A stretch of 48,406 bases of DNA. Source: a virus. Taxonomy: Duplodnaviria > Heunggongvirae > Uroviricota > Caudoviricetes. The notes below the pieces were generated by a model. It ran no database searches, was not told the origin of the DNA, and was given only the letters and a program-made list of their open reading frames with translations. The stretch lies in the IMG/VR virus record IMGVR_UViG_2531839448_000004; one strand, written 5' to 3'. Made by a program: the position numbers and the translations under genes. Below, piece after piece: positions 15,641 through 48,406 of the stretch; position 1 is the stretch's first letter; every line of letters starts with the position of its first letter.

Positions 15641-15681
15641 TGGTATCTATTCGATGGATACTCACATACTACGGTAACATC

Positions 15682-17118: not shown

Positions 17119-17325
17119 ATGAATAAAGAACAATCTGCTGATGAACTCTCGTTGGATCTGATTCGTGTAAAAAATATGCTTAATAGCACCATTTCTATGA
17201 GTTACCCGGATGTTGTAATTGCATGTATAGAACATCAGGTGTCTCTGGAAGCATTCAGGGCAATTGAGGCAGCGTTGGTGAAGCACGATAAGAATTCGAA
17301 GGATTATTCCCTGGTGGTTGACTGA
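17119..17325 (+). CDS. Hypothetical small protein
   Basis: 68-codon ORF between ydfO and the cos region. Confidence 0.35.
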
Positions 17326-17649
17326 GCACCATAACTGCTAATCATTCAAACTATTTCACCTGTGACAGAGTCAATATCGCATTCTGTCACTGTCAGGCTA
17401 ATACAGAGCTGCAATTCAACTACTGCAATGTCCTCGTAATTAGGTGAATTTACAATATCGTCCTGTTCGGATGCCGGCTGCATTGCTGAAGATGAGGCAT
17501 TTATGGTTCGCATATTTTCCCCTCATGCTCGTCAGTCCTGTGCGTAGGAAGAAACAGGACACTCACACTAATTTGTGTGGGCATGCTGTGATGTCCTTCT
17601 GAATTATTCCTATGCCATTATGTAAAGCGCTGTATCAGATGCTCGTCAC

Positions 17650-17689
17650 GGCTGTCAGGCTGTCAGGCTGTCAGGCTGTCAGGCTGTCG
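17650..17689. repeat. Tandem octamer repeat (GGCTGTCA) x4 plus one variant GGCTGTCG, just upstream of the cosN-like sequence
   Basis: Directly visible: ggctgtca ggctgtca ggctgtca ggctgtca ggctgtcg. Confidence 0.9.
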
Positions 17690-27105: not shown

Positions 27106-27443
27106 CGCGGGAAATGCAGTTTGTCATGCGGCTTGCCCGGGAGTTCCGGCGGGCAGACTGGCGGCGGATGCTGTCGGAAATGTCGGCCACTGAGCTTGGT
27201 GAGTGGGGTGATTATTTCCGGATGCAGAGCTTCAGTGATGTGTGGATGGATGCGCAGTTTGCCTCGCTGAAGGCATTGATCGTGAGAATGGTGTCCGGCA
27301 GCAGTGATGCTGCGGTGGCTGATTTCAGCCTTTTACCGGAAGAGAACGGGATACCGGAGCGAACGGACGAAGAACTGATGCATCTTGGGGAAGGTATTTC
27401 CGGAGGTGTGCGTTATGGACCAGATAGCCAACCTGGTCATTGA
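27096..27443 (+). CDS. gpT-like segment, expected to be made only as a G-T fusion by -1 frameshifting near the end of G
   Basis: Open -1 frame overlapping the G terminus; A-rich slip-prone sequence CCGGAAAAG at 27091-27099 just before the G stop (27103-27105). Confidence 0.6.
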   Translation, partial: KVLTREMQFVMRLAREFRRADWRRMLSEMSATELGEWGDYFRMQSFSDVWMDAQFASLKALIVRMVSGSSDAAVADFSLLPEENGIPERTDEELMHLGEGISGGVRYGPDSQPGH

Positions 27444-30400: not shown

Positions 30401-30478
30401 CTTGGGAAAAAAGCGGCAGCGGACTTTATGCAACAGCAGGCCCGTGATGGTGGTCGGTTAAGTGGAGCATATCGGTAA
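27415..30478 (+). CDS. Tape measure protein gpH-like, interrupted by two frame changes (segments 27415-29565, 29628-30152, 30149-30478)
   Basis: N-terminus MDQIANLVIDLGIDAAEF (lambda H: VGDLVVDLSLDAARF); C-terminal segment ...NIEINNDGTNGQIGPAALKVVYDL matches the lambda H C-terminus; frame changes at the A6 tract 29548-29553 and the G5 tract 30126-30130. Confidence 0.75.
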
Positions 30479-30807
30479 TGGAGACGTTTCACTGGAAAGT
30501 GCGCCCGGATATGAATGTGGTATCAGAGCCGAAAGTGGTGACAGTGAAGCTGGGCGATGGTTATGAACAGCGTCGTGCGGCGGGACTGAATAACCAGTTG
30601 TCGACTTACAGCGTGACGATACGTGTTCGTAAATGTGAACACCCATCTTTAAAAGCCTTTCTGGAACGGCACGGTGGCGTCCGCGCATTTCAGTGGACGC
30701 CACCTTATGACTGGAAACCGATTAGGGTGGTTTGTCGTAAATGGTCGGCAAGCGTGGGGGCGCTGTGGGTAACCATAACGGCAGATTTTGAACAGGTCGT
30801 GGCATAG
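30478..30807 (+). CDS. Minor tail protein gpM-like
   Basis: METFHWKVRPDMNVVSEPKVVTVKLGDGYEQR...FEQVVA, 109 aa as lambda M. Confidence 0.9.
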   Translation: METFHWKVRPDMNVVSEPKVVTVKLGDGYEQRRAAGLNNQLSTYSVTIRVRKCEHPSLKAFLERHGGVRAFQWTPPYDWKPIRVVCRKWSASVGALWVTITADFEQVVA

Positions 30808-30816
30808 GAGGCTCTG

Positions 30817-31515
30817 ATGCAGGATATTCCACAGGAAACACATCATGAGACGACACGCCTCACTCAGTCAGCCCAGGTGGTGCTCTGGGAAATCGATCTG
30901 ACAGAGGTCGGTGGTGAACGTTATTTTTTCTGTAATGAGCAGAACGAAAAAGGTGAGCCGGTTACCTGGCAGGGGCGGCAGTATCAGGCATACCCCATTC
31001 AGGGGACGGGATTTGAACTGAATGGCAAGGGCAGTGCTGCCCGTCCGACACTGACGGTTTCTAACCTGCACGGCATGGTCACCGGGATGGCGGAAGACCT
31101 GCAGAGTCTGGTCGGCGGAACGGTGGTCAGGCGTAAGGTTTACGCCCGTTTTCTGGATGCGGTGAACTTCGTCAACGGAAACAGCGACGCCGATCCGGAG
31201 CAGGAGGTGATCAGCCGCTGGCGCATCGAGCAGTGCAGCGAACTGAGTGCGGTCAGTGCCTCCTTTGTGTTGTCCACACCGACGGAAACGGATGGTGCCG
31301 TTTTTCCGGGACGTATCATGCTGGCCAACACCTGCACCTGGACCTATCGCGGCGATGAGTGCGGTTATCACGGTCCGGCGGTCGCGGATGAATATGACCA
31401 GCCAACGTCCGACATCACGAAGGATAAATGCAGCAAATGCCTGAGCGGTTGTAAGTTCCGCAATAACGTCGGCAACTTTGGCGGCTTCCTTTCCATTAAC
31501 AAACTTTCGCAGTAA
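30817..31515 (+). CDS. Minor tail protein gpL-like (Cys-rich C-terminus)
   Basis: 232 aa; C-terminal cysteine cluster CTWTYRGDECGY...CSKCLSGCKF as in lambda L. Confidence 0.9.
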   Translation: MQDIPQETHHETTRLTQSAQVVLWEIDLTEVGGERYFFCNEQNEKGEPVTWQGRQYQAYPIQGTGFELNGKGSAARPTLTVSNLHGMVTGMAEDLQSLVGGTVVRRKVYARFLDAVNFVNGNSDADPEQEVISRWRIEQCSELSAVSASFVLSTPTETDGAVFPGRIMLANTCTWTYRGDECGYHGPAVADEYDQPTSDITKDKCSKCLSGCKFRNNVGNFGGFLSINKLSQ

Positions 31516-31520
31516 ATCCC

Positions 31521-32264
31521 ATGACACAGACAGAATCATCGATTCTGGCGCACGCCCGGCGATGTGCTCCAGCGGAGTCGTGCGGCTTCGTGGTAAGAAC
31601 GCCGGAGGGGGAAAGATATTTCCCCTGCGTGAATATCTCCGGTGAGCCGGAGGCATATTTCCGTATGTCGCCGGAAGACTGGCTGCAGGCAGAGATGCAG
31701 GGTGAGATTGTGGCACTGGTCCACAGCCACCCCGGTGGTCTGCCCTGGCTGAGTGAGGCCGACCGGCGGCTGCAGGTGCAGAGTGATTTGCCGTGGTGGC
31801 TGGTCTGCCGGGGGACGATTCATAAGTTCCGCTGTGTGCCGCATCTCACCGGGCGGCGCTTTGAGCACGGTGTGACGGACTGTTACACACTGTTCCGGGA
31901 TGCTTATCATCTGGCGGGGATTGAGATGCCGGACTTTCATCGTGAGGATGACTGGTGGCGTAACGGCCAGAATCTCTATCTGGATAATCTGGAGGCGACG
32001 GGGCTGTATCAGGTGCCGTTGTCAGCGGCACAGCCGGGCGATGTGCTGCTGTGCTGTTTTGGTTCATCGGTGCCGAATCACGCCGCAATTTACTGCGGCG
32101 ACGGCGAGCTGCTGCACCATATTCCTGAACAACTGAGCAAACGAGAGAGGTACACCGACAAATGGCAGCGACGCACACACTCCCTCTGGCGTCACCGGGC
32201 ATGGCGCGCATCTGCCTTTACGGGGATTTACAACGATTTGGTCGCCGCATCGACCTTCGTGTGA
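31521..32264 (+). CDS. Tail assembly protein gpK-like (JAB/MPN + NlpC/P60 domains)
   Basis: HSHPGG motif of the JAB/MPN domain and a conserved Cys/His region; position after L. Confidence 0.88.
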   Translation: MTQTESSILAHARRCAPAESCGFVVRTPEGERYFPCVNISGEPEAYFRMSPEDWLQAEMQGEIVALVHSHPGGLPWLSEADRRLQVQSDLPWWLVCRGTIHKFRCVPHLTGRRFEHGVTDCYTLFRDAYHLAGIEMPDFHREDDWWRNGQNLYLDNLEATGLYQVPLSAAQPGDVLLCCFGSSVPNHAAIYCGDGELLHHIPEQLSKRERYTDKWQRRTHSLWRHRAWRASAFTGIYNDLVAASTFV

Positions 32265-32833
32265 AAACGGGGGCTGAAGCCATCCGGGCACTGGCCACAC
32301 AGCTCCCGGCGTTTCGTCAGAAACTGAGCGACGGCTGGTATCAGGTACGGATTGCCGGGCGGGACGTCAGCACGTCCGGGTTGACGGCGCAGTTACATGA
32401 GACTCTGCCTGATGGCGCTGTGATTCATATTGTTCCCAGAGTCGCCGGGGCCAAGTCAGGTGGCGTATTCCAGATTGTCCTGGGAGCAGCCGCCATTGCC
32501 GGATCATTCTTTACTGCCGGAGCCACCCTTGCAGCATGGGGGGCAGCCATTGGGGCCGGTGGTATGACCGGCATCCTGTTTTCTCTCGGTGCCAGTATGG
32601 TGCTCGGTGGTGTGGCGCAGATGCTGGCACCGAAAGCCAGGACGCCCACGGCAGCCAGTACAGATAACGGCAAACAGAACACGTATTTCTCGTCACTGGA
32701 TAACATGGTTGCCCAGGGCAATGTTCTGCCTGTTCTGTACGGGGAAATGCGCGTGGGATCACGTGTGGTTTCTCAGGAGATCAGCACGGCAGACGAAGGG
32801 GATGGTGGTCAGGTTGTGGTGATTGGTCGCTGA
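32162..32833 (+). CDS. Tail assembly protein gpI-like
   Basis: 223 aa; RICLYGDLQRFGRRIDLRVKTGAEAIRALATQLPAFRQ...; overlaps the 3' end of K as in lambda. Confidence 0.85.
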   Translation: MAATHTLPLASPGMARICLYGDLQRFGRRIDLRVKTGAEAIRALATQLPAFRQKLSDGWYQVRIAGRDVSTSGLTAQLHETLPDGAVIHIVPRVAGAKSGGVFQIVLGAAAIAGSFFTAGATLAAWGAAIGAGGMTGILFSLGASMVLGGVAQMLAPKARTPTAASTDNGKQNTYFSSLDNMVAQGNVLPVLYGEMRVGSRVVSQEISTADEGDGGQVVVIGR

Positions 32834-32893
32834 TGCAAAACATTTTATGTGAAACCGCCTGCGGGCGGTTTTGTCGTTTATGGAGCGTGACGA

Positions 32894-35800
32894 ATGGGTA
32901 AAGGCAGCAGTAAGGGGCATACCCCGCGCGAAGCAAAGGACAACCTGAAGTCCACGCAGTTGCTGAGTGTGATCGATGCCATCAGCGAAGGGCCGATTGA
33001 AGGTCCGGTGGATGGATTAAAAAGCGTGCTGCTGAACAGTACACCGGTGCTGGACAGTGAGAGGAATACTAACATCTCCGGTGTCACGGTGGTGTTCCGG
33101 GCAGGTGAGCAGGAACAGACACCGCCGGAGGGATTTGAATCATCAGGTTCCGAGACGGTACTGGGTACGGAAGTGAAATACGACACGCCGATCACCCGGA
33201 CCATCACGTCGGCAAACATTGACCGTCTGCGCTTTACCTTCGGTGTGCAGGCACTGGTGGAAACCACCTCAAAGGGGGACAGGAATCCGTCGGAAGTCCG
33301 CCTGCTGGTTCAGATACAACGTAACGGTGGCTGGGTGACGGAAAAAGACATCACCATTAAGGGCAAAACCACCTCGCAGTATCTGGCCTCGGTAGTGGTG
33401 GATAACCTGCCGCCGCGCCCGTTTAATATCCGGATGCGCAGGATGACGCCGGACAGCACCACAGACCAGCTGCAGAACAAAACGCTCTGGTCGTCATACA
33501 CCGAAATCATCGATGTGAAACAGTGCTACCCGAACACGGCACTGGTCGGCGTGCAGGTGGATTCGGAGCAGTTCGGCAGCCAGCAGGTGAGCCGTAATTA
33601 TCATCTGCGCGGGCGTATTCTGCAGGTGCCGTCGAACTATAACCCGCAGACGCGGCAATACAGCGGTATCTGGGACGGAACGTTTAAGCCAGCATACAGC
33701 AATAACATGGCCTGGTGTCTGTGGGATATGCTGACCCATCCACGCTACGGCATGGGGAAACGTCTCGGTGCGGCGGATGTGGACAAATGGGCGCTGTATG
33801 TCATCGGCCAGTACTGCGACCAGTCAGTGCCGGACGGCTTTGGCGGCACGGAGCCGCGCATCACCTGTAATGCGTACCTGACCACACAGCGCAAGGCGTG
33901 GGATGTGCTCAGTGATTTCTGCTCGGCGATGCGCTGTATGCCGGTATGGAACGGGCAGACGCTGACGTTCGTGCAGGACCGGCCGTCGGATAAGGTGTGG
34001 ACCTATAACCGCAGTAATGTGGTGATGCCGGATGATGGCGCGCCGTTCCGCTACAGCTTCAGCGCCCTCAAGGACCGCCATAATGCCGTTGAGGTGAACT
34101 GGATTGACCCGGATAACGGCTGGGAGACGGCGACAGAGCTTGTGGAGGACACGCAGGCCATTGCCCGTTACGGTCGTAACGTCACGAAGATGGATGCCTT
34201 TGGCTGTACCAGCCGGGGGCAGGCACACCGCGCCGGGCTGTGGCTGATTAAAACGGAGCTGCTGGAAACGCAGACCGTGGACTTCAGCGTGGGTGCCGAA
34301 GGGCTTCGCCATGTACCGGGCGATGTCATTGAAATCTGTGATGATGACTATGCCGGTATCAGCACCGGCGGGCGCGTGCTGGCGGTGAACAGCCAGACCC
34401 GGACGCTGACGCTCGACCGTGAAATCACGCTGCCATCCTCCGGTACCACGCTGATAAGCCTGGTTGACGGAAGTGGCAATCCGGTCAGCGTGGAGGTCCA
34501 GTCCGTCACCGACGGCGTGAAGGTAAAAGTGAGCCGTGTTCCTGACGGCGTTGCCGGATACAGCGTGTGGGGGCTGAAGCTGCCGACGCTGCGCCAGCGC
34601 CTGTTCCGCTGCGTGAGTATCCGTGAGAACGATGACGGTACGTATGCCATCACTGCCGTGCAGCATGTACCGGAAAAAGAAGCCATCGTGGATAACGGGG
34701 CGCACTTTGACGGCGACCAGAGCGACACGGTGAATGGTGTCACGCCGCCAGCAGTGCAGCACCTGACTGCCGAAGTCACCGCAGACAGTGGGGAGTATCA
34801 GGTACTGGCCCGCTGGGATACGCCGAAGGTGGTGAAGGGCGTGAGCTTCATGCTTCGCCTGACCGTGGCAGCGGATGACGGCAGTGAGCGGCTGGTCAGC
34901 ACGGCCCGGACGGCGGAAACCACATACCGCTTCAGGCAGCTGGCGCTGGGGAACTACAGGCTGACAGTCCGGGCAGTAAATGCGTGGGGACAGCAGGGCG
35001 ATCCGGCATCGGTATCGTTCCGGATTGCCGCACCGGCAGCGCCGTCGCAGATTGAGCTGACACCGGGGTATTTTCAGATAACCGCCACGCCGCATCTTGC
35101 GGTTTATGATCCGACGGTACAGTTTGAGTTCTGGTTCTCGGAAACGCGGATTACCGATATCAGGCAGGTTGAAACCACAGCCCGCTACCTTGGCACGGGG
35201 CTGTACTGGATAGCCGCCAGTATCAATATCAAACCGGGCCATGATTATTACTTTTATATCCGCAGTGTGAACACCGTTGGCAAATCGGCATTCGTGGAGG
35301 CCGTCGGTCGGGCGAGCGATGATGCGGAAGGTTACCTGGATTTTTTCAAAGGCAAGATAACCGAATCCCATCTCGGTAAAGGGCTGCTGGAAAAAGTCGA
35401 CCTGACGGAAGATAACGCCAGCAGACTGGATCAGTTTTCGAAAGAGTGGAAAGACGCCAACGATAAATGGAATGCCATGTGGGGCGTCAAAATTGAGCAG
35501 ACCGAAGACGGTAAGCATTATGTCGCGGGACTTGGCCTCAGCATGGAGGATACAGAGGAAGGCAAACTGAGCCAGTTTCTGGTTGCCGCTAACCGTATCG
35601 CGTTTATTGACCCGGCAAACGGGAATGAAACGCCGATGTTTGTGGCGCAGGGCAACCAGATATTCATGAACGAAGTGTTCCTGAAACGCCTGACGGCCCC
35701 CACCATTACCAGTGGTGGAAATCCACCGGTATTTTCCCTGACACCGGACGGAAAGCTGACCGCTAAAAATGCGGATATCAGTGGCAGTGTGAATGCGAAC

Positions 35801-36307
35801 TCCGGGACGCTCAACAACGTCACGATAAATGAAAACTGTACGATTAAGGGTATGCTGGAGGCGAATCAGGTCAGAGGTGATTTTGTTAAAACAGTATCCA
35901 AATCATTCCCGAAAAAGGCTGGTACGTGGGGTAACACGGAAACACCAGACGGGACGGTTACAGTCACCATCAGCGATGATCATAACTTTGACCGTCAAAT
36001 CATTATTCCGCCCATTATCTTTAACGGTATAGCGTATGACGATCCGGGAAGTGGTGATAACCCGGGAGGTACAAGGTACACGGGGTATGGTTTTGAAGTT
36101 CGCAAAAACGGCGTATTAATCGCATCCAGAGAAACTAAAGGGGCCATTCCCGGTAGTTACAGTGCGGTTATTGATATGCCGAGTGGCAGGGGAAGCGTCA
36201 CTCTGGAGTTTAAGATTTTCCAGAAAGGCAATCAGGGGGCAGGCAATATCACCGACTGTACGGTGATTGTGACCAAAAAGGCTGCTTCCGGCATCAGTAT
36301 TCGTTGA
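32894..36307 (+). CDS. Host-specificity protein / central tail fibre gpJ-like
   Basis: 1137 aa; position after I; lambda-J-like N-terminus. Confidence 0.92.
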
Positions 36308-36328
36308 AATTGTTATAACCCCAATAAA

Positions 36329-36354
36329 GGGCGTCAGGAATGACGCCTTTTTTA
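36329..36354 (+). terminator. Intrinsic terminator after J
   Basis: GGCGTCAggaaTGACGCCttttttatt. Confidence 0.75.
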
Positions 36355-36377
36355 TTGCAGAAAAGCGAGAGGTAATT

Positions 36378-36977
36378 ATGCGTAAAGTTTGTGCAGCCAT
36401 TTTGTCCGCAGCCATCTGTCTGGTCGTATCCGGTGCGCCTGCATGGGCGTCTGAACATCAGTCCACGCTGAGCGCGGGGTATCTTCATGCCTCGACGAAC
36501 GTTCCCGGCAGCGATGATCTTAACGGGATTAACGTGAAATACCGTTATGAGTTTACGGACACGCTGGGGATGGTGACGTCATTCAGCTATGCAGAAGACA
36601 AGAATCGCCAGCTGACTCATTACAGCGATACCCGCTGGCATGAAGATTCCGTGCGTAACCGCTGGTTCAGCGTGATGGCGGGGCCGTCTGTGCGCGTGAA
36701 TGAATGGTTCAGCGCGTATGCGATGGCGGGTGTGGCTTACAGCCGTATTTCGACTTTCTCCGGGGATTATCTCCGCGTAACTGACAACAAGGGGAAAACG
36801 CACGAAGTGCTGACCGGAAGTGATGACGGTCGCCGCAGCAACACGTCTCTGGCGTGGGGGGCTGGCGTGCAGTTTAACCCGACCGAATCCGTGGCCATTG
36901 ATATTGTTTATGAAGGCTCCGGCAGTGGCGACTGGCGCACTGACGGTTTCATCGTGGGTGTCGGTTATAAGTTCTGA
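36378..36977 (+). CDS. lom: Lom outer-membrane protein (Ail/Lom family)
   Basis: Signal peptide MRKVCAAILSAAICLVVSGAPAWA; beta-barrel pattern; C-terminal ...GVGYKF. Confidence 0.9.
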   Translation: MRKVCAAILSAAICLVVSGAPAWASEHQSTLSAGYLHASTNVPGSDDLNGINVKYRYEFTDTLGMVTSFSYAEDKNRQLTHYSDTRWHEDSVRNRWFSVMAGPSVRVNEWFSAYAMAGVAYSRISTFSGDYLRVTDNKGKTHEVLTGSDDGRRSNTSLAWGAGVQFNPTESVAIDIVYEGSGSGDWRTDGFIVGVGYKF

Positions 36978-37003
36978 TTAGCCAGGTAACACAGTGTTAT
37001 GAC

Positions 37004-37031
37004 AGCCCGCCGGTTCAGGCGGGCTTTTTTG
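37004..37031 (+). terminator. Intrinsic terminator after lom
   Basis: AGCCCGCCggttcaGGCGGGCTtttttg. Confidence 0.75.
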
Positions 37032-37041
37032 TGGGGTGAAT

Positions 37042-40000
37042 ATGGCAGTAAAGATTTCAGGTGTACTGAAAGACGGTGCAGGTAAACCGGTACAGAACTG
37101 CACAATCCAGCTGAAAGCAAAACGTAACAGCACCACGGTGGTGGTGAACACGCTGGCATCTGAAAATCCGGATGAAGCAGGGCGTTACAGCATGGACGTT
37201 GAGTACGGTCAGTACAGCGTTATTCTGTTGGTGGAAGGATTCCCGCCGTCACATGCCGGGACCATCACAGTGTATGAAGATTCCCGACCCGGTACGCTGA
37301 ATGATTTTCTCGGTGCCATGACGGAGGATGATGCCCGTCCGGAGGCACTGCGCCGTTTTGAGCTGATGGTGGAGGAGGTGGCGCGTAACGCGTCCGTGGT
37401 GGCACAGAACACGGCAGCCGCGAAGAAGTCAGCCAGTGATGCCAGCACATCAGCCCGTGAGGCGGCAACCCATGCGACTGATGCTGCAGGCTCAGCACGC
37501 GCAGCCAGCACGTCAGCCGGACAGGCCGCGTCGTCGGCTCAGTCAGCGTCTTCCAGCGCAGGAACGGCATCAACAAAGGCCAGTGAAGCATCGAAAAGTG
37601 CTGCTGCTGCAGAGTCCTCAAAAAGCGCGGCGGCCACCAGTGCCGGTGCGGCGAAAACGTCAGAAACGAATGCGGCAGCGTCACAACAATCAGCCGCCAC
37701 TTCTGCATCCACCGCGACCACGAAAGCGTCAGAAGCTGCCACCTCAGCCCGGGATGCGGCGGCCTCAAAAGAGGCAGCGAAATCATCAGAAACGAACGCA
37801 TCATCAAGTGCCAGTAGTGCAGCTTCCTCGGCAACGGCGGCAGGAAATTCCGCGAAGGCCGCAAAAACGTCTGAGACGAATGCAGATAACAGCGCACAGG
37901 CGGCAGCGGCCTCACAAACTGCATCGGCAAACTCCGCGACAGCAGCCAAAAAATCAGAAACCAACGCGAAAAATAGCGAGGCAGCAGCAAAGAGCAGCGA
38001 AACAAACGCTAAAGCCAGCGAAACTAATGCTAAATCCAGTGAAACAAACGCGGCGAAATCTGCGGCGGACGCACTTAATTATCGCAACCAGGCGCAAGTA
38101 ATTGTAGGCGATAATATCGGTCTTGGCTCAGCACCGCGTGATTGTCCTGATATTTCCGGCAACCCATCAGGGTATATCGGATTTATGCGCATTATGAGTA
38201 ATGCAAAAGGCTTTCCATCGATTGCATCCGGTGAAAGCAGTCTTACGGGGTTTATTAGTCAGGTAGATGGAACACCAGCGTATACAGGTGTATTTCAGGG
38301 ATGGGCTACGCGCTCGCTTTATACTTATCGCTGGAATCCGACAATAGGCCCGCAGTGGACGCGTCACGCAAGAAAAGATGAAGTGGACAGGCTTACTCAA
38401 CTAACAGGTAATACACGCGTATATTGTCAAAATGCAAGCAAATTTTTTGGTATCTACGATTCAGGAACATGGGGTTATTACGATGCAGAGAATAGCGAAT
38501 GGATTCCGCTTTCGATCGCGGCCGGAGGTACTGGTGCGGCAACTATTGATGGTGCCAGAACGAATCTTGGCTTAGGTAGGAACAACAGCCCTCAACTTAA
38601 CAGTCTATTTCTTGATAGATATAGTGATTCGACCAATACATACACATCTAGTGGAATTCTCCATACAAGACTGTTAGCAACTGACAGCACTGTGCGTCTT
38701 GGTGCTGATATGTATGTTGAGACTTTATCAAATGAGCCAGGTCAATTAACAATAAGGTTTACATACGATGGTTCAACTGGTGCTTCAAAATATCTAAACC
38801 TTAACTCAGAAGGTAATTTAATTGTAGATAGTGCGATACTGAGATCAACGGTTGAAAAACCTTTACAAATAAGGAGCGCTAACCCAGCAATAAGATTTAA
38901 TGAAACAGATCGCCCGGCTAACACGCCTACTTATACTCTCATTGCTAATGCTGGCGACTGGTTTATTCAGAAACGCGATTATGATGATGCCGGAAGCGTT
39001 AGTAACGCAATTGCATATAATTTCGCAAACGACAGAATTGATGTGCAAAATCTTAAAGCGTCTGGGTTAATTACAGCTAACTCAGGAATCGCAACATTAA
39101 CAGGTCATGACTGGAACTCTCAGCATACTGATAACGTCGACAAATTTAGACCAATCGCAGGCAGTACAAACGGCCCGGCAGGCTCTATGGTTCTTGGCGG
39201 CATTCATGTTCAATTTAGTAAAAATTATGCTGTGCAGTTCGGAGGCCGCAATTCCGGTTTTTGGGGAAGAACAATTGAAAATGGAACGACGCAGGAATGG
39301 AAGAAATTACTAACAGTAGACGATCTCAATTCATCTACCGATCTTGCTGTCAGGTCATTAACCACATCTAACCCGGTAAAATCTGGCGGAGGGCGAATTG
39401 ATGTCCTTGGAAGCACGTCAGACTATAGCAAAATGGATTGCTTTGTACGTGGGTTTGATAGCACCGGTAATTCTCTCGCGTGGGCGTTGGGTTCATCAGT
39501 CGGCGTAAGTAAGATGCTGTCGCTAAAAAATTTCTTTAGCGGAGCTGAGATACTGCTAAATGGTAATGACGGCGCGGTTCAACTCAAAACAGGTGCTGTT
39601 AACGGGGCTAAAGCGCAGGCGCTCACTATCAACAAGGATGAGGTTAACTCAACTGTTGATTTAACTCTTACAAAACAAACAGGGACTGGAAATCGTTTTG
39701 TTTTACAGAACTTAGGTAATACAGAACTATCATTTGCCGCAAAAGTATGGGGATCAAGTGATCGACAAAACGTTTTTGAGGTTGGAACGTCTGCTGCGTA
39801 TCTGTTTTATGCGCAAAAAACGTCAGCAGGCCAGTTGTTTGATGTAAATGGCGCTATTAATTGCACAACGCTGAATCAGTCATCAGACCGCGACCTTAAA
39901 GACGATATTCTCGTTATCAGCGACGCGACGAAAGCAATCCGTAAAATGAACGGATACACCTACACGCTCAAGGAAAACGGGATGCCTTATGCTGGCGTTA

Positions 40001-40317
40001 TTGCACAGGAAGTAATGGAGGCGATACCAGAAGCTGTGGGATCGTTTACTCATTATGGTGAAGAGTTGCAAGGTCCGACCGTTGACGGCAACGAGCTACG
40101 CGAAGAAACTCGCTATCTTAATGTTGACTACTCCGCCGTGACGGGTTTACTTGTTCAGGTCGCCCGTGAAACAGATGATCGCGTTACCGCGCTGGAAGAG
40201 GAAAACACAACGCTACGTCAAAATCTGGCAACAGCAGGCACCCGGATCAGCACTCTGGAAAATCAGGTAAGCGAACTGGTTGCACTTGTCCGGCAGTTAA
40301 CAGGAAGCGAACATTGA
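37042..40317 (+). CDS. Side tail fibre protein with Ala/Ser-rich repeat collar and C-terminal intramolecular-chaperone (S74-like) domain
   Basis: N-terminus MAVKISGVLKDGAGKPVQNCTIQLKAKRNSTTVV...; C-terminal ...DRDLKDDILVISDATKAIRKMNGYTYTLKENGMPYAGVIAQEV... is chaperone-domain-like. Confidence 0.85.
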   Translation: MAVKISGVLKDGAGKPVQNCTIQLKAKRNSTTVVVNTLASENPDEAGRYSMDVEYGQYSVILLVEGFPPSHAGTITVYEDSRPGTLNDFLGAMTEDDARPEALRRFELMVEEVARNASVVAQNTAAAKKSASDASTSAREAATHATDAAGSARAASTSAGQAASSAQSASSSAGTASTKASEASKSAAAAESSKSAAATSAGAAKTSETNAAASQQSAATSASTATTKASEAATSARDAAASKEAAKSSETNASSSASSAASSATAAGNSAKAAKTSETNADNSAQAAAASQTASANSATAAKKSETNAKNSEAAAKSSETNAKASETNAKSSETNAAKSAADALNYRNQAQVIVGDNIGLGSAPRDCPDISGNPSGYIGFMRIMSNAKGFPSIASGESSLTGFISQVDGTPAYTGVFQGWATRSLYTYRWNPTIGPQWTRHARKDEVDRLTQLTGNTRVYCQNASKFFGIYDSGTWGYYDAENSEWIPLSIAAGGTGAATIDGARTNLGLGRNNSPQLNSLFLDRYSDSTNTYTSSGILHTRLLATDSTVRLGADMYVETLSNEPGQLTIRFTYDGSTGASKYLNLNSEGNLIVDSAILRSTVEKPLQIRSANPAIRFNETDRPANTPTYTLIANAGDWFIQKRDYDDAGSVSNAIAYNFANDRIDVQNLKASGLITANSGIATLTGHDWNSQHTDNVDKFRPIAGSTNGPAGSMVLGGIHVQFSKNYAVQFGGRNSGFWGRTIENGTTQEWKKLLTVDDLNSSTDLAVRSLTTSNPVKSGGGRIDVLGSTSDYSKMDCFVRGFDSTGNSLAWALGSSVGVSKMLSLKNFFSGAEILLNGNDGAVQLKTGAVNGAKAQALTINKDEVNSTVDLTLTKQTGTGNRFVLQNLGNTELSFAAKVWGSSDRQNVFEVGTSAAYLFYAQKTSAGQLFDVNGAINCTTLNQSSDRDLKDDILVISDATKAIRKMNGYTYTLKENGMPYAGVIAQEVMEAIPEAVGSFTHYGEELQGPTVDGNELREETRYLNVDYSAVTGLLVQVARETDDRVTALEEENTTLRQNLATAGTRISTLENQVSELVALVRQLTGSEH
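37600..38060 (+). repeat. In-frame tandem repeats encoding reiterated A-K-(S/T)-S-E-T-N-A motifs within the tail-fibre gene
   Basis: Repeated peptide units AAKTSETNAAAS, AKSSETNASSSAS, AKTSETNADNSAQ, KKSETNAKNSEAAAKSSETNAKASETNAKSSETNAAKSA. Confidence 0.8.
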
Positions 40318-40353
40318 TATCCTTCAAGCCCTGAAGGAGGCTGTTCCTGGTAC

Positions 40354-40488
40354 GTTCAGACTGTTGCTGAGCTGGAGATCGCAACGGAGGAAGAGAAAGC
40401 GTTTCTGGCCGCATGGAAAACATATCGGGTATTGCTGAACCGTGTTGATACAGTAAACCCCGTCTGGCCTCCACCTTCGAAGCGATAG
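40354..40488 (+). pseudogene. Tail-fibre assembly (Tfa) C-terminal remnant
   Basis: Reads [43 protein letters not shown], resembling conserved Tfa C-termini; no start codon and no N-terminal part; in frame directly after the stf stop. Confidence 0.6.
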
Positions 40489-40792
40489 CCCAGCAACTCC
40501 TAAATAGCTGCGCATAATACCGCTACACCTGCCGTTTTACTGACATTTGGAATATTGCGTGAGGGCAACATATCGAGGGGCAGATACAGCTCGGTCAAAT
40601 AGAAAAACAGCCCCACTATTTACCATGCAATAGCTGGTCAAAAGGAGAGCACTATTCCGCTCCGCGTAGTATTTTGTGTTTATAGTGATAACTTAGGTAA
40701 TGCTTAGTCACTAAGATACTTTGCTATTGGAGAGCGATTTATAATGTGGGCGCAACAGATTTTTACTATTGCGCCACTTGCTCTTGTGAGTA

Positions 40793-41881
40793 CTATTCGC
40801 TATAAGTTAATGTTGGTTTTGAAAGTCTTTTGGATATTGTTTTTCCGATATTAATGAATGGAGTTTCAATATATTTATAAATAAAGAATGATAAGAACAA
40901 GCTAAGAGCAATAATGAATGAAAACTTAGAGAACCCAGGTTTTTCATAAAGCGGAATGAAATCCTTAAAATTAATTAAAAATAGCATTACTATCGCATGG
41001 GATAAATACAGAGAGTAAGAGATATCACCTAGCTTACTGAGTATTTTATTTTCCCTTAATCCGAAGTTAACTTCATAAAGTAAAACTCCCGTAATTATGG
41101 AGGCTGCCCACAATCCGAAGTTTAAAGGGCCATGACCAAATCTGAATTGATAAAAATATGAGCAAACACCAAATGAAACCAAAAGGAATGATATCGCCTT
41201 TGCGTTTTTTATATATTTAAATTTTCTGTGTATTATATACAGAAACATCCCATAAACGAATTCTAACAGCATGGGTGATGACATTAAGTTTAGAAAGCCA
41301 ATATGCCAATGACCTGTATCACCAATCGTAAACTTACTTGATAGAGAAAGGCTGTTGGAAAATTTCAACTGTATGAGAAGTAGCGGGACTATCAATGCAA
41401 TAACTGATATTAATAATCTGTTTTTATGACTCAGCGATATTGCAAGCATAAAAATGAAATAAAAATAGACTTCAAAGGTTAATGTCCATGCTGGATAAAG
41501 CACGTTGTATCCGAAGAATGGCGCTTCTGAATAATAGTCCAGGTGAAGCAGAAACAATGAACGCAATAATTCACTTTCGGTGAAGACTGGGTTCAATAAA
41601 AAGAATAAGATTGTGCAAATGAAAAATACAGGGTAAATCCTGAAAAAACGCCTGGTCATAAAGTTAATAGGGGAATTTGTTTCTTTTTTTTGACTCGATA
41701 ACATTATTATAAATCCACTTATAATAAAAAACAGATCAACCCCAAAACCACCACTAATAAACAATAAATCACCTAGATCTTTTTGTGCGTAAACTTCATT
41801 TAGGTATTGTTTATTGTGATATGCAACAACGAGTAATGCTGCTACACCTCGCAAATAGTGAATTGATTTTACCTTCTTCAT
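40793..41881 (-). CDS. Acyltransferase-3 family membrane protein (OafA/Oac-like O-antigen acetyltransferase candidate)
   Basis: 362 aa, polytopic, markedly AT-rich; N-terminal YLRGVAALLVVAYH motif typical of acyltransferase-3 proteins. Confidence 0.75.
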   Translation of the reverse strand: MKKVKSIHYLRGVAALLVVAYHNKQYLNEVYAQKDLGDLLFISGGFGVDLFFIISGFIIMLSSQKKETNSPINFMTRRFFRIYPVFFICTILFFLLNPVFTESELLRSLFLLHLDYYSEAPFFGYNVLYPAWTLTFEVYFYFIFMLAISLSHKNRLLISVIALIVPLLLIQLKFSNSLSLSSKFTIGDTGHWHIGFLNLMSSPMLLEFVYGMFLYIIHRKFKYIKNAKAISFLLVSFGVCSYFYQFRFGHGPLNFGLWAASIITGVLLYEVNFGLRENKILSKLGDISYSLYLSHAIVMLFLINFKDFIPLYEKPGFSKFSFIIALSLFLSFFIYKYIETPFINIGKTISKRLSKPTLTYSE

Positions 41882-42319
41882 TTTTATATAATCACTGTTC
41901 CAATTTTTTTATTTTACAAACAATTCTATCTAGCTCATTAGTACTCAAAGTCAGATTGGTAGCAATAAAAAAACAAGATATGTGATGACATGGCGCGGGG
42001 CTCAGAACCACTCGTGTATTTTCGCCACTGGCTATGACTGGCTGCACCTGCAAGATCTGCCATTTGTGTGCCAGTATACCCAAGCTCTGACTTTATGTTT
42101 ACCAGATCCTCTGGAGTGCCGGGGAGTATAATCGTTGATTAATCGAATCTGCAACTATTTCAGAACGACCTAGGTTAAAGTGCGCTCTGCAGTCTCTTAT
42201 ATAAGGTGATACTTTAATTGTCTGGAAACTGGACAGGTTAGGAAGGAGCAGGAAACATCTTATTATACTTACCGAGTAGCTGCGGGTAAGGGGGGGATTT
42301 CCGTAGCCTGACAGGTAAC

Positions 42320-42594
42320 ATTGACACGTCAACATCGATGGTTTTTTTTATTTTTCCATGTGATGGAGCCCTGGTTGAAATGAAGCGTGAACTGATTGAT
42401 GACTGAACAAAAGTTGGACTGGAAGATGCTCGCGCACAGGGAGGAATTGGTGGACGTCGTCCTAAACTTACATCAGAACAATGGGCGCAGGCCGGGCGAT
42501 TAATTGCATCAAAAGTCCCGCGTCAGAAGGTGGCGATCATCTATGATATTGGTGTATCGACTTTGTATAAGAGGTTTCCAGCCAGGATTATATA
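42320..42594 (+). pseudogene. Decayed C-terminal fragment of a Pin/Hin-family serine DNA invertase
   Basis: Frames give ...GALVEMKRELIDD* then ...GGIGGRRPKLTSEQWAQAGRLIASKVPRQKVAIIYDIGVSTLYKRFPARII*, matching the invertase C-terminal HTH region, with in-frame stops and frame changes; catalytic N-terminus absent. Confidence 0.65.
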
Positions 42595-42918
42595 AAACTG
42601 CAGACACGCCGTATGCAAGACGTGCTGCGGTTGGTTGATGCACTTTCGAGAGTGTATGTATTGAATAATTTCCAACCGTCATTAATTTTATTTATTTTTT
42701 GCATGAGAGGATTTGAACCTCCGAGCCTCGACACCTTATGACAACGCGATATTCCCTTGATGACCGCTATGCGCCAAAATAACCAATTGATAAATAAGTT
42801 GATTTTAATTGGTTGGAAGCAAGTCAGGTCAAATTCAGCATGCCGCTCTCTGTATCGGGTAGTTAAATTTTTCTATAACTGATAGTAATATGTTAAAACT
42901 CACACAGATAAATTATCA

Positions 42919-44901
42919 TTGCTCAACAAGTATAATGGAGTTCCCGTGGATACAGCAGAACATGATGGCAAATTTGCTTGGGCTAGTTTTTATGAGGCTT
43001 TTGCCAACGCGTTACTGACTTGGCGAAATCGTAGAGATGAATTAGTCAAAGGTATTCATCTAATTGCCTCAGGTGTGGAAGGAATGTCCCATCTGCAGGA
43101 CAAATCTATTATGGGAGAGATCTTTCCCTTAAAAGACATTTGTCCGTTTACTACTATGGGCTTGTTCAATCGTAACTTGACCGACAGCAATCGCAAAATT
43201 ATTGCTGCCAAGCTAGCGAATTTGTTGGGCGTGAACGAACCGATTCCTGACTCCTTTGCCGGAATCCCGCTGTTGAATAACCAAAAATCTTGGTTCTTTG
43301 GTTATGAAAAGTCACGCGACCCTAATGACATTGAATGCTTGTGGGAAATGTTCTCGCAGGCAATGACCTTTGCGGATAACCAGAATACTAACTCTGCAGA
43401 CTTCACTGCCGCATATGACATCGCTTCTACAGTAATGAATGTCGGTTGGAATCTCACCATGGGGTTGTACTGGACCCGTCCTTGGTTCTACCCTACTTTA
43501 GATAGCCAGTCGCAGTATTACATTCAGACAGTGTTAAACATTAAGATCATTAAAAACGGGGCAAAAGGTCGCTGTAGTGGACAAAGTTACCTGAGTCTTA
43601 TGCGGGCGCTGAACGAGGTCTTTACCCAACCAAACTATCCGGTTCATTCTTTCCCAGAACTTTCTTTATCAGCGTGGAATACAGATCTTAGCCAGTCTAA
43701 AGATGAGGTGGCAAATAGAACGTGGAAAGCCTCTTTACTGAATAAAATTAAGGCGTTATGCCTGAAAAAAAATGGCCCTTATTTCACTGCTTCGGAGTTG
43801 GAAGAAAACTACTTGGACGTATTCAAGGTAGAGCATCCTGAGAGCAAAACAGTTACAAGCTCAATCTACTTTTATCTACAGAAACTATGCAATGATGATG
43901 AGTTAAAGTCCCTTGAGTCCGGAAATTATGAATACCTGAATTTTGAGAAAAACGAATCCCAGACGATAACTGAGGAAACTGTCGAAGAGAGTGCGCCGTT
44001 GCCAAAACTCACTCACGTTCCTTATGACATCAGTCATCTGGTGCAGGATGGCTGTTTCTTGGAAGAGGCTAAGATCCAACTCACACTTCAGCGCCTGATC
44101 GACAAGAAAAACCTGATATTACAAGGACCACCCGGAACTGGAAAAACCTGGTTAGCGCGACGTCTGGCGTACTGCTTGATGGGAGAAAAAGCACCTGAGC
44201 GTATTAGCGCGGTGCAATTTCACCCGAACCTCTCTTACGAAGACTTTATTCGCGGCTGGCGTCCAGGTAAAGAAGGGCAATTGACGCTAATTGATGGACC
44301 TTTTGTAAATGCAATCAAAACTGCAGTCAATAATCCTACCTCGAAATATGTGGTGATAATTGAAGAGATTAATCGTGGCAATCCGGCGCAAATCTTCGGT
44401 GAAACACTCACGTTGATGGAAGCAGATAAACGCACGCCGACTGAGGCATTATCTCTTTCCTATCCTAAAAATGATGATGAAAAAATATACATTCCTGAGA
44501 ATCTATATATCATCGGTACGATGAATATTGCAGACCGCTCACTCGCACTACTTGACCTAGCGCTGCGCCGTCGTTTCGCGTTTATCGATCTAAAGCCAGC
44601 TTTTAATGACGCGTGGAGAAACTGGGTAAATTATAATTACGCAATTGATTTTGACATGTTAGCATTCATCAAATCTCGACTGACGGTACTTAACGATATG
44701 CTGGCAAAAGATGTTACCTTAGGACCACAGTTTTGTATCGGTCACAGCTATGTCACCCCAGCTATCGGCCAAAAAATCAACGATGCCCAGGCTTGGTATG
44801 AACAAGTCGTTGATACAGAGATCTGCCCTTTGCTCGCCGAATATTGGTTCGATGCTCCAAATAAAGTCGATGAAGCCAGAAAAGTGTTATTAGCAAAATG
44901 A
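42919..44901 (+). CDS. McrB-like AAA+ GTPase with a long (~400 aa) N-terminal region of unrecognised type; start codon uncertain (TTG 42919 or GTG 42946)
   Basis: C-terminal motifs LILQGPPGTGKTW, VVIIEEINRGNPAQIFGETLTLMEADKR, YIIGTMNIADRSLALLDLALRRRFAF match the McrB GTPase family; ATGA overlap with the downstream McrC-like gene. Confidence 0.75.
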   Translation: MLNKYNGVPVDTAEHDGKFAWASFYEAFANALLTWRNRRDELVKGIHLIASGVEGMSHLQDKSIMGEIFPLKDICPFTTMGLFNRNLTDSNRKIIAAKLANLLGVNEPIPDSFAGIPLLNNQKSWFFGYEKSRDPNDIECLWEMFSQAMTFADNQNTNSADFTAAYDIASTVMNVGWNLTMGLYWTRPWFYPTLDSQSQYYIQTVLNIKIIKNGAKGRCSGQSYLSLMRALNEVFTQPNYPVHSFPELSLSAWNTDLSQSKDEVANRTWKASLLNKIKALCLKKNGPYFTASELEENYLDVFKVEHPESKTVTSSIYFYLQKLCNDDELKSLESGNYEYLNFEKNESQTITEETVEESAPLPKLTHVPYDISHLVQDGCFLEEAKIQLTLQRLIDKKNLILQGPPGTGKTWLARRLAYCLMGEKAPERISAVQFHPNLSYEDFIRGWRPGKEGQLTLIDGPFVNAIKTAVNNPTSKYVVIIEEINRGNPAQIFGETLTLMEADKRTPTEALSLSYPKNDDEKIYIPENLYIIGTMNIADRSLALLDLALRRRFAFIDLKPAFNDAWRNWVNYNYAIDFDMLAFIKSRLTVLNDMLAKDVTLGPQFCIGHSYVTPAIGQKINDAQAWYEQVVDTEICPLLAEYWFDAPNKVDEARKVLLAK

Positions 44902-46018
44902 CGACAATAACCGGGAGTGAGCAACATACAGCATCACGTATTCCCATGCGAAATATCTGGATGCTGATGCTGTACGCTTCAGATCTGTTTCGTCAGTTAG
45001 GGCGCAATCAGATCGCAGTAGAAGATAACCCAGCAGAAATCCCCGACCTGGTGGCGACAATCCTCCTTCATGAGATTACGCTGCGCCGACGTCGCAATTT
45101 AAATATGGGATACCAAACTTGTCATGCGGCCCTGAACCGGGTGAGAGGGCGCATTGACATACTGTATACTGCCAGTCATCAACTACTGGAACGGGGACAG
45201 GTTGCCTGCCATTTTCAAGACATAACCCTCAACACCCCCCGAAATCGCTATGTTCGCTGTGCGTTAGAACGTCTGGCCTCAATCATAGTGAAACCGTCTT
45301 TGGCGGCAGATTGCCATTTTATGGCAATATCACTTCGCCGTGAGGGGATAAATGGAGGATATCCTGCCCCCACGAATTACCCTCAGTGTGGCGTTTTGGA
45401 CGCCATGATGCCGCAGATAAACCGATGGTCGATGCCGCACGATTAGCTTTTGAACTGCTGATGCCGACCGAAGATCAAGGCCAATATCTTTTACCTGCGC
45501 CCTCAAATAACCTTTACTGGATGAGAAGACTATTTGAAAAAGGTATCGCTGGCTTATATCGTGTACACCTTGCCAAAACAACTTGGCAGGTCTCTGCAGG
45601 GAAAGAGCTGAAATGGGCGTTGAGCGATCAAAGTGCAGGTAGTGCAGAGATTTTCCCGACAATGAAGTCAGACATTATTCTGGAACACAAGACTGCCCAG
45701 CGGCGTATTATTATCGATACCAAATTTAATTCGATTCTGACAAAGGGTTGGCATCGGGAGCAATCACTACGTAATGGCTATATTTATCAGCTATATACCT
45801 ACCTTAGAACACAGGAGAACAAGACGGATCCGCTTTCGCTCAATGCCGCTGGTCTTCTACTTCATCCAGCTGTTGGCTATATGCTTAATGAGTATGTTGT
45901 CACTCAGGGACATAAGATCCATTTTGCTACAGTAGATATGACGGTAGATGCTAAAGCAATTAAAAAACAATTGCTGGCAATAGCCCATGATTGTGCAGGA
46001 GTCGCGGTTGATGACTAA
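44898..46018 (+). CDS. McrC-like nuclease subunit, split into two frames (44898-45446 and from about 45344 to 46018)
   Basis: N-terminus ...IPMRNIWMLMLYAS... (McrC: IPVRNIYYMLTYAW); second frame carries the D-x-K nuclease core RIIIDTKF and YIYQLYTYL (McrC: ILIVDAKYY, NLYQLMNYL). Confidence 0.6.
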
Positions 46019-46715
46019 CCATCCTATAAGGCACTGGCTGTAATATAATCAATAGTTTCAATTAAGTAGCTGTTATCCGTGCTTAGTCATCATATGACGC
46101 ACCACGGTCTAATTTTCCTGCTCATACATTGATATATCCTTGTCGAGCCCGGAAAGTCGCAGTCCACTATTAGGTATACCGATTGCCAGCACCAAAAGCT
46201 TCTTTGTAATTATTATATCGGGGAATGCCTATTTTTTAGTGACAATATCAGATAGCAATTAATAAGCGGTGCCGGTAATGGATGTTATGTTTAATGTATA
46301 GATACAGTCATCATAAACTAAACGTCTGTTGTTCGCTCATAACCGACATTTATCTCAGTTATGGAAGATAATTATGTATGCAGATAATGGGGCAGACAGT
46401 CGTGGAGTAAACAAGGTTTTGCACTGATTGGCGGCATCGTTATCTTATTTTTAATTATGTGCCTCTTAACATAAGTTGGGACAAAACAGAGACACATAAG
46501 GTCTCACAAAGGTCTGCAAGGCCTCACATGTATTGAGGTGTTAATAAAATGTAGACTTGTAATTTGGATATAAATGGTAGAGAAAACCTTTCCCCAAAAT
46601 AAAAACGAACGTCAATGAAATCAAACGGTTGAATAAAGTTGATTTTGGCTAATAAAAAACAATAAAATATTTTTATGATTAAATATCAATGACTTGAACT
46701 TAATGTTTTTATATA

Positions 46716-46880
46716 CTGTTACGCCATATGGGTTGGACTGAAGCGGCTGACCTGATTGTTAAAGGTATGGAAGGCGCAATCAATGCCAAGACCGTAACCT
46801 ATGACTTCGAACGTCTGATGGAAGGCGCTAAATTGCTGAAATGTTCAGAGTTTGGTGACGCGATCATCAAGAATATGTAA
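46716..46880 (+). pseudogene. icdC: 3' fragment of isocitrate dehydrogenase gene icd (prophage attR duplication)
   Basis: Translation [54 protein letters not shown] matches the Icd C-terminus; no upstream icd sequence. Confidence 0.8.
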
Positions 46881-46903
46881 TCTCTCCATGTGTTAAATAT
46901 TGA

Positions 46904-46935
46904 AACGGGCGTATAACACGCCCGTTGTTTTATTT
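46904..46935 (+). terminator. icd-type intrinsic terminator
   Basis: AACGGGCGTataacACGCCCGTTgttttattt. Confidence 0.7.
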
Positions 46936-46982
46936 ATGTGGATATTATTAATAGCATATCGAGCATATTTATATAAAACCCT

Positions 46983-47306
46983 TTACTTGAGCCCATATGG
47001 GCATATTTTTATAATGCAACTATTATGCAAACATTTATTTGTTATTTTGCTTTCTCCTGGAGGACACTCTTGACTGCTTTTGAGTAGACTCCATAAATCC
47101 TTGTTGAATGGTGCGATGTTATAAATAGTAATAGGATATTCTTTATCTTTAAGGATAATACCAGATTTAACCGGTTTAAATATACTGCCAGGAGGGAGAA
47201 ATATAGTAGATTGATACCAGATGATCATTTTCATATCACCCCATATGACTGAAAAAGATATACCGCATGTAGGTTGAATTACCGTGTCAATTACTATCCA
47301 CTTCAT
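46983..47306 (-). CDS. iraM: IraM anti-adaptor protein (RpoS stabiliser)
   Basis: [107 protein letters not shown], 107 aa. Confidence 0.88.
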
Positions 47307-47744
47307 TTGTTATGTCTTATCCCACGGTATTTAATATAGTTCATTTGGATATTCATTTCTTTATTTTGCATATGAGTATATTACCCCTTCAAAAAATAAA
47401 TTAATTAAAACGATTGCTTATATAAAACAAAATTTAAAGCAAGGAATCTCAATGGATGTTAAACAAAATGAGATTTAGTGAAAACAATAAATTATTCACT
47501 TCGTTTTAGATTTGTTTAGCTATAATGTTATACATTCAAATGACTGAACATCCTGTAATTAAAACATAGCCTTTATGCTACTTGGTGCCAATTTGCTAAA
47601 CATTATGGTTGCTTTTTTATATAACGATAATAATGAATATAAGCATGACATGAGAATAAGGTTCCAATTTTTGAGTTATATAGGAAAGGTTTAACCTGTT
47701 CCTGGCTAAAATACATATAACTGGATGATGACTAAACCAAAACA

Positions 47745-47795
47745 CATGTGCGTTAAGTATTGAAACGGGCGTATGGCACACCCGTTGTTTTTATA
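47745..47795 (+). repeat. Second copy of the icd 3'-end/terminator sequence
   Basis: catgtgcgttaagtattgaaacgggcgtatggcacacccgttgttttta closely parallels 46888-46933 (catgtgttaaatattgaaacgggcgtataacacgcccgttgtttta). Confidence 0.7.
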
Positions 47796-48001
47796 AATAT
47801 ATTAACCGTTATAAAATAACGTATAGAAAGTCAAGTGATCACATTTCAAATATCAATTTGATAGTATTGGCCTGGTGATTATTTATGGGTAGCAATAAAA
47901 GGACAGTATTTATCATCCATAGGGATAGTCTCTGTACTTTTATTCCCATTATGCTAATGCCTTACTGAATTATGAAGCATTTCTTTAGTATCCAACTTTA
48001 G

Positions 48002-48406
48002 CTAGATTAATGGTTTATTATTTTCTACATCTTCAATATATAAAAGCGTATTATCAATGGCGTAGTAACTGCGTTTGTTATGATTAACATCAGTAACCCA
48101 ACGGAAAACGCCCGCGCCTGCTAGTGTTGAACAGTATTCCCGAAATGTAGATTTTCCGCAAATATGAAGCAATGCGGCCTCTTTTATTTTAGCAGGGTTC
48201 TTGGTCGTACTAACTTTTAACAGGTTCCTGGTTCCTCTTAATAACAAAACCGTATCATCGTGAGTAATAATTCTGATGTTATCCGTAGCCAGATAATAAA
48301 TGTAATGTGCAATACGGTGATGTTTTAATTCTGAATAAAACCAGGAGAAGTTTTGCTCTTTTCTCACTTGCTCAAACATCTTTTGAAAAACAACGACCTG
48401 ATCCAT
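48002..48406 (-). CDS. ycgX: YcgX (DUF1398 family), complete at the window edge
   Basis: [51 protein letters not shown]...; paralogue of ydfO; neighbour of iraM as in the icd flank of K-12. Confidence 0.8.
   Translation of the reverse strand: MDQVVVFQKMFEQVRKEQNFSWFYSELKHHRIAHYIYYLATDNIRIITHDDTVLLLRGTRNLLKVSTTKNPAKIKEAALLHICGKSTFREYCSTLAGAGVFRWVTDVNHNKRSYYAIDNTLLYIEDVENNKPLI

Follow-up and report, generated by a model that had tools for sequence, protein, structure and literature searches.

The icd gene is a textbook phage attachment site, and the primary papers on two of its occupants, e14 and phage 21, are reportedly those of Hill et al. 1989 and of Campbell and co-workers. According to published work, icd and icdC flank e14 (PMC13626634), and the lambdoid prophage NC-SV sits at the phage-21 site in icd (PMC12803456). 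Prophage-bounded, terminus-biased inversions arising by homologous recombination have been documented in E. coli O157:H7 (PMC8743559). We analyzed a DNA stretch of 48,406 nucleotides (hereafter the window) from a virus record of the class Caudoviricetes and compared both of its ends with these systems and with the cryptic prophage Qin.

The right end of the window resembles the icdC/attR end of e14 in K-12, in which a partial icd 3' end with its stop codon and terminator also follows restriction and pin genes and directly precedes iraM-ymgK-ymgL-ycgX. Unlike e14, however, the phage is a different one, with an unrelated left arm, a McrBC-like pair in the position of mcrA and an integrase that, as read beside icd in the sister genome CV839-06, is 60% identical to IntE of e14. 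The element also resembles the phages of the phage-21 site (NC-SV; Perceval, 4A7, ev017, 1W), with which it shares the integrase of the sister genome as well as an attP layout in which the left arm is followed by the icd surrogate and terminator and, about 60 nt later, by int. In contrast to intact phages of this site, only the right ~15 kb is present here, and attL, int and xis are not on the element.

The left part of the window resembles the cryptic Qin prophage (ydfJ-ynfB locus) in its dicB-to-gnsB gene order, in DicF, relBE, hokD and the csp genes, and in its ynfB-speG flank. Unlike K-12 Qin, head and tail genes are kept here, an IS2 stands in place of ydfD' to ynfA, intQ included, and the tail-fibre/pinQ/ydfJ' end is swapped for the end of an icd prophage. 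The arrangement proposed below is like the prophage-bounded inversions of O157:H7 in its inverted similar prophages, its terminus span and its hybrid prophages at the endpoints (PMC8743559). It differs from them in pathotype (the closest relatives are from pigs), in the very short tract of 99 nt, and in being read from draft sequence.

The displaced icd end and its attachment site

On the plus strand, positions 46716-46880 translate as a 54-codon ORF that corresponds to the 3'-terminal piece of icd. Comparison with the unoccupied site of strain cq9, where the order is rluE-icd-iraM-ymgL-ycgX, places the beginning of native host DNA at 46717, and the window from 46717 to 48406 is identical to icd-iraM-ymgL-ycgX of that site at 1690/1690 positions. 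The displaced piece itself, an icdC-type pseudogene (46717-46880, +), consists of TG, 53 codons (L RHMGW...IIKNM) and a stop codon, is 100% identical to the icd of the cq9 empty site, and has neither a 5' part nor a promoter of its own. The first-pass annotation had described this piece as a 54-codon fragment of icd; its assignment to the icd 3' end stands, and its extent is corrected to 53 native codons plus stop, starting one base to the right. Since the identity to cq9 ends exactly at 46717, the fragment is the native icd end and not a phage copy. On these alignments the native 3' end of icd spans 46717-46933 and includes its final 53 codons with stop codon and terminator. A chance ORF and a second phage-derived copy were both ruled out as explanations by the 100% identity to the empty site.

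Positions 46722-46933 matched the 3' end of the intact icd of CV839-06 at 98.6% over 212 nt (E = 2e-104) and the single icd of cq9 at 100% (E = 3e-106). In both genomes, Icd ends in the same 52 residues (RHMGW...IIKNM), so that the fragment had been correctly described as the exact C-terminus of isocitrate dehydrogenase for this lineage, whereas K-12 Icd differs at 2 of these 52 residues. Between the scar and the resident copy, five nucleotides differ, including the Leu codon (three of them within 46722-46933, silent or non-coding); between icdC and the resident icd of K-12, the difference amounts to about 20 nt and 2 amino acids. In CV839-06, PGAP labels the stretch that corresponds to the scar as the pseudogene of an N-terminally truncated dehydrogenase (4061436-4061603). 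A second icd end is common: the 212-nt query returned 7,356 places in 5,426 complete E. coli genomes, which leaves about 1,900 extra copies, and roughly one genome in three carries one. That the icd 3' end is duplicated, as had been proposed from the window, is supported from the sister genomes, with two places each.

The intrinsic terminator of icd (46904-46936, +) is real, as previously noted, with a 9-pair GC-rich stem at 46904-46926, a 5-nt loop and a T-run. It is kept in attB, attL, attR and attP, and has moved along with the displaced icd end. Apart from its terminator, the scar would have no function.

The strand-exchange point was located by a four-way alignment in which phage Perceval represented attP, the cq9 site attB, the icd of CV839-06 attL and the window attR. 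At the attR junction (46717-46718), the phage left arm (...TATATAC) is followed by TG and then by host sequence (TTACGCC...). The attP sequence reads ...TATATAC TG CTG CGCC...AAACTG...TCACTA...TTTTAT GATGATG..., and attB reads ...GAGATGA TG TTA CGCC...AAATTG...TCTCTC...TTTTAT TTATGTG.... All five informative differences between attP and attB to the right of TG were of the B type in attR and of the P type in attL (5/5), which gives attL as B-left plus P-right, read from the sister genome, and attR as P-left plus B-right. By this alignment, the exchange is at the TG of 46717-46718, at the extreme 5' edge of the ~217-bp homology, and the exchange region overlaps the 11-bp identity ATGCTGCGCCA common to attL and attR of e14 in K-12.

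Immediately to the left, positions 46331-46716 (+) form the attP left arm of an icd-integrating lambda-like phage. This arm is absent at the empty site of cq9 and about 85% identical in the free phages Perceval, ev017, ev207, Lambda_2E9 and others, in which it is followed by a phage-borne icd surrogate and then, ~60 nt later, by int and xis. Beside icd, CV839-06 carries an integrase that matches those of such free phages (Perceval, 4A7, 1W and others) at 99.5-99.7% identity. Identity to the empty site, the attP arm on the left and the reciprocal attL/attR pattern all agree with the attR of an icd-integrating phage (e14/21 class) that had been suggested for this end, and by every sequence-level mark of that class (e14/phage-21) the window ends on the right in a classical attR scar of the icdC type.

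A lambda-like temperate phage of this kind has, adjoining int, a copy of the final 53 icd codons and the terminator, and its tyrosine integrase exchanges strands at the 5' edge of the icd homology. After insertion by this classical mechanism, the phage copy completes icd at attL, leaving the gene intact, and the native icd end is displaced to the far end of the prophage as a promoterless scar (attR, like icdC of e14).

Two prophage parts and two host flanks on one contig

The source of the window was identified through two of its proteins. The mosaic J protein led to contig AFEB01000030.1 (GCA_000225245.2; 211,801 bp), which is 100% identical to the window over 22894-46307 (23,414 nt), and the nearly unique frameshifted flxA allele led to the same contig further left, where it is 100% identical to window positions 1-17460 (17,460 nt). 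The contig runs 2.9 kb past the left edge of the window, through IS2 orfA, ynfB, speG, ynfC, ynfD and ynfE, and this extension is collinear with the Qin locus of CV839-06 at 99.98%. Neither icd nor an integrase was found at the left end, in the 2.9 kb of AFEB01000030.1 beyond the window. A single contig carries two host flanks, that of the Qin locus on the left and that of the icd locus on the right.

Because the end opposite to the scar lacks icd-int, the window is not a complete icd-integrated prophage. The first-pass annotation had seen here an icd-integrating prophage that carries a Qin-type immunity/lysis backbone. Immunity and lysis genes of the Qin type are really present in the window; their carriage by such a prophage is not borne out, as the left flank is IS2-ynfB-speG-ynfC-ynfD-ynfE without icd or int and the element is a two-parent hybrid. 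The proposed check, a search for icd and integrase at the other prophage end, fails for the element as assembled, and both genes were seen only in CV839-06, where the left half of the prophage is a different one.

The left parent is a Qin prophage at its own locus (933-31715, +), with ydfD', dicB, DicF, ydfA, the dicA/dicC region, relBE, hokD, rem, ydfU, Q, cspF/B, lysis genes, cspI, gnsB, terminase, portal, ClpP-capsid and tail genes through the 5' part of K. This part is 99.9% identical to the prophage at the Qin locus of CV839-06 and has the gene order of K-12 Qin; window positions 900-24900 correspond to 4480244-4504239 of CV839-06 on the opposite strand (99.9%), and about 10 difference events separate window 1-30300 from that prophage. 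In CV839-06, the locus begins with ydfJ'-ynfT-ydfK-pinQ-tfaQ, continues with tail, head and lysis genes and then cspB/F, ydfT, ydfU, rem, hokD, relBE, flxA, a dicA-like region, ydfA, dicB and ydfD', and ends with IS2 followed by ynfB-speG. Its identification as Qin in the window draws on the gene order, the DicF sRNA (1459-1510, -; Rfam), dicB, relBE, hokD, cspBFI, the Qin lysis genes and the ynfB-speG flank. The opposite flank of Qin, pinQ-ydfK-ydfJ', is not in the window, where the right end of the icd prophage and icd' stand instead; CV839-06 has it.

At the left edge, IS2 (orfB part; 1-932, +) truncates ydfD and takes the place of the integrase end of Qin. The same IS2/ydfD' junction is present at Qin in CV839-06 and in further genomes, a UGAN genome has the same IS2-ynfB flank at Qin, and a ydfD'-IS2 fusion ORF (114 aa) is also found in sister contigs. 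A protein look-up returned no record of the 132-aa variant of this fusion ORF.

The right parent is a lambda-like prophage of the icd locus, whose right part (31815-46716, +) contains, with Pfam matches, the 3' part of K, I, J, lom, a tail fibre gene, an acyltransferase gene (-), a pin pseudogene and the McrBC-like pair. It is essentially identical to the icd-locus prophage of CV839-06, a genome in which icd (4010758-4012008) is followed by int, xis and a lambda-type prophage that extends up to the icd pseudogene. The window matches this prophage solely from ~30.3 kb on, and from 38000 on only 10 sites differ between the two.

Could the window nevertheless be the right 48 kb of one mosaic phage that has immunity and lysis genes of the Qin type and was inserted at icd by its own integrase, with icd and int lying just past the left edge? 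Such a phage would account for the genuine attR, mosaicism is a feature of lambdoid phages, and the hybrid K protein was also found in another prophage. We consider this reading highly improbable, because the source contig has the Qin locus and no int or icd on its left, because the IS2/ydfD' junction is the one found at Qin in CV839-06 and other genomes, and because the left 31.7 kb is nearly base for base the Qin-locus prophage of the sister strains. A join between two prophages residing at different loci is the reading that we prefer, and the position of that join can be defined closely.

The switch within gene K and a proposed inversion

Mismatches counted per 500 nt place the window with the Qin-locus prophage up to ~31.5 kb and with the icd-locus prophage from ~32 kb. 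Among the sites that distinguish the parents, 241 consecutive ones are of the Qin type (30343-31715) and the following 176 are of the icd-phage type (31815-33394). The recombination interval between them (31716-31814, +) is 99 nt long, identical in both parents, flanked by divergence of 4-15%, and lies inside the tail gene K (31521-32264). The K protein is accordingly a hybrid, with Qin-type residues at 3, 7, 45 and 50 and icd-phage-type residues at 99, 229 and 241. Further right, there are small Qin-type patches at 33406-34258 and 37239-37486 and a mixed zone at 34297-35075; this alternation of parental types over 33406-35100 and the Qin-type patch at 37239-37486 could represent gene conversion or the consensus mixing of paralogous prophages.

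In CV839-06, the two copies of K (4046238-4046981, +, and 4472878-4473621, -) are ~427 kb apart and inverted, and the parent prophages of ETEC1731 and ETEC1747 stand in the same strand relation. The distance from icdC to Qin in K-12 is ~421 kb, and the dif and Ter sites lie between these two loci.

We favor, with a probability of about 0.68, the explanation that icd' is a leftover host end and that its junction with Qin, made by inter-prophage recombination, is one endpoint of a chromosomal inversion. Homologous recombination within the 99 identical bases of K would join the right ~15 kb of the icd prophage (mid-K to attR) to Qin, which, ~427 kb away and inverted, would already have lost its integrase end to IS2. 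A crossover between inverted prophages would flip the intervening terminus-region DNA and produce the hybrid seen here, and a reciprocal hybrid, icd-int...K'-Qin tail fibre-pinQ-ydfJ', would be predicted at the other endpoint. In line with this, the closest relatives carry inverted homologous prophages, and one draft contig shows a clean switch together with the flanks of two loci. If a true inversion has generated these two products, neither hybrid should be able to excise, because the Qin half has no integrase (IS2) and attL and attR of the icd phage would be inverted relative to each other. Recombination between IS2 copies, which are present in both CV839-06 prophages, was rejected as the cause, as the parental switch is in K and not at an IS.

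The hybrid would be the derived state, since K-12, CV839-06 and the ETEC genomes all have standard ends at both loci. An inversion is symmetric and its polarity is unreadable from two genomes alone, which leaves some room for the opposite order of events, with the window arrangement ancestral and the CV839-06 type arising from it by inversion. This seems scarcely credible given that K-12 has pinE-mcrA-icdC at icd and ydfJ'-pinQ-tfaQ...dicB at Qin, that CV839-06, ETEC1731 and ETEC1747 carry the corresponding fuller arrangement at both loci, and that the hybrid was seen once, with the same IS2-ynfB Qin flank occurring in the UGAN genome.

The junction rests on one draft contig of the 2011 era. 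The hybrid junction was found in 0 of 5,426 complete E. coli genomes, in which the best full-length identity was 97.5%. Look-up of the 247-aa hybrid K protein returned only an unrelated lambda-like prophage contig, AFEB calling K from another start; the 199-aa call of K is widespread, and no returned locus had the hybrid junction at the nucleotide level, all being at most 95% identical. Outside the recombinant zone, the differences from CV839-06 are nearly all one-base homopolymer deletions (differing positions 16, 7188, 12015, 16147, 29550, 30126, 41904, 42290, 42342, 45367, 46654 and 46670), and these deletions split flxA (7125-7460), the tape-measure gene (27385-30478) and the mcrC-like gene (44898-46018), probably as homopolymer errors of the draft.

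These properties of the draft are relevant to an assembly chimera, in which a genome arranged like CV839-06 had its paralogous prophages misjoined in the tail region, and icd' would be the genuine attR of a separate, intact icd prophage. The uniqueness of the junction among all genomes searched would fit a misassembly, as would the abundant homopolymer errors, by which flxA, the tape-measure gene and mcrC are broken up, the patchy parental sites in J, which resemble a mixed consensus, and the passage of the contig across the multicopy IS2, where the assembler was resolving repeats. On the other hand, the switch is clean, with just 99 nt of identity amid 4-15% divergence, a situation that sequencing reads only a few hundred bases long ought to disentangle, and, lying at 31.7 kb, it does not coincide with the patchy zone (33.4-35.1 kb). 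We regard a chimera as unlikely, though it deserves appreciable weight beside the inversion.

For the inversion itself, a further consequence can be considered: if it is genuine and recent, the ~427-kb rearrangement across the terminus, made through just 99 bp of identity, could leave attL (icd::int-xis) and attR of a lambda-like integrase system that is still active in inverted orientation, so that Int (with Xis) would flip about one tenth of the chromosome instead of excising a phage, as a reversible switch under phage control. We give this idea very little credence.

Both an icdC-type scar and inter-prophage recombination were already known, and the finding is an ordinary one. Its scientific weight is small, with such scars routinely annotated as pseudogenes and inter-prophage inversions documented. 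It illustrates that a prophage called from one window can be a two-prophage hybrid bounded by different attachment loci, and since hybrids may be bounded by two loci, inferring the integration site of a phage from one end is unsafe.

Other features of the prophage parts and the host flank

Around the left edge of the window, IS2 abuts ynfB and the K-12 stretch ydfE-intQ-ynfP-rspBA-ynfA is missing. The frameshift run of this IS2 is A5 here and A6 in sister copies. A second IS2, within rrrD of the icd prophage of CV839-06 and in the opposite orientation, is another potential inversion substrate. The early region of the Qin part also contains an ISEsa1-family (IS1202-like) transposase gene (5352-6692, +), between a DUF977 gene and ydfW/flxA; this insertion is common to O26:H11 and many other Qin-like prophages. 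The flxA frameshift allele was also found in two independent Logan assemblies (SRR13380318, SRR19090773), and given this recurrence the frameshift may be real. Rfam matches revealed two cspA-type thermoregulator 5' UTRs, at 12149-12541 (+) and 15052-15437 (+), upstream of the cspB-like and cspI-like genes. Relative to CV839-06, there is an 8-nt insertion, AGGCTGTC, a tandem duplication at 17681-17688, with three substitutions nearby. This cluster, just upstream of the DUF1441/terminase genes, is the sole cluster of non-homopolymer differences in the Qin part.

In the icd-phage part, the J gene (32894-36307) is intact in the window (1137 aa), and gpJ of CV839-06 has an internal stop at codon 728. 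At 35075, the base of that stop, the window carries the Qin-type nucleotide; either gene conversion has repaired the gene here, or the stop is a mutation private to CV839-06 or an error in that sequence. An acyltransferase of the Acyl_transf_3 family (362 aa; 40793-41881, -) is encoded between the tail-fibre genes and the pin pseudogene, and is moron-like cargo with a possible role in the acetylation of surface polysaccharides. The McrBC-like type IV restriction pair (42919-46018, +) consists of an AAA_5/McrB-lid ATPase and a PF10117 McrC-like protein. It follows the pin pseudogene and adjoins attR, at the position that mcrA has in e14. It seems that icd prophages have a conserved place for defence cargo at their attR end.

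To the right of icd', the chromosomal flank of the icd site (46937-48406) contains iraM (46983-47306, -), a ymgK-like gene (47559-47603, -), ymgL (47839-47949, -) and ycgX (DUF1398; 48002-48406, -). The host genes iraM and ycgX had already been recognized after the fragment, and their order is the same as behind icdC of K-12 and at the unoccupied cq9 site. A degenerate copy of 43 nt of the icd terminator was detected at 47749-47791, 860 bp downstream of the first and 88% identical to 46889-46931; cq9 has it too. The two terminator copies bracket iraM, and the second may be the scar of an older icd insertion that carried in iraM. YcgX is 44% identical (E = 2e-40) to a YdfO-like DUF1398 protein of the Qin part (16408-16833, -), and this likeness gives the flank to the right of icd' the look of an older lambdoid prophage in decay, not of core chromosome.
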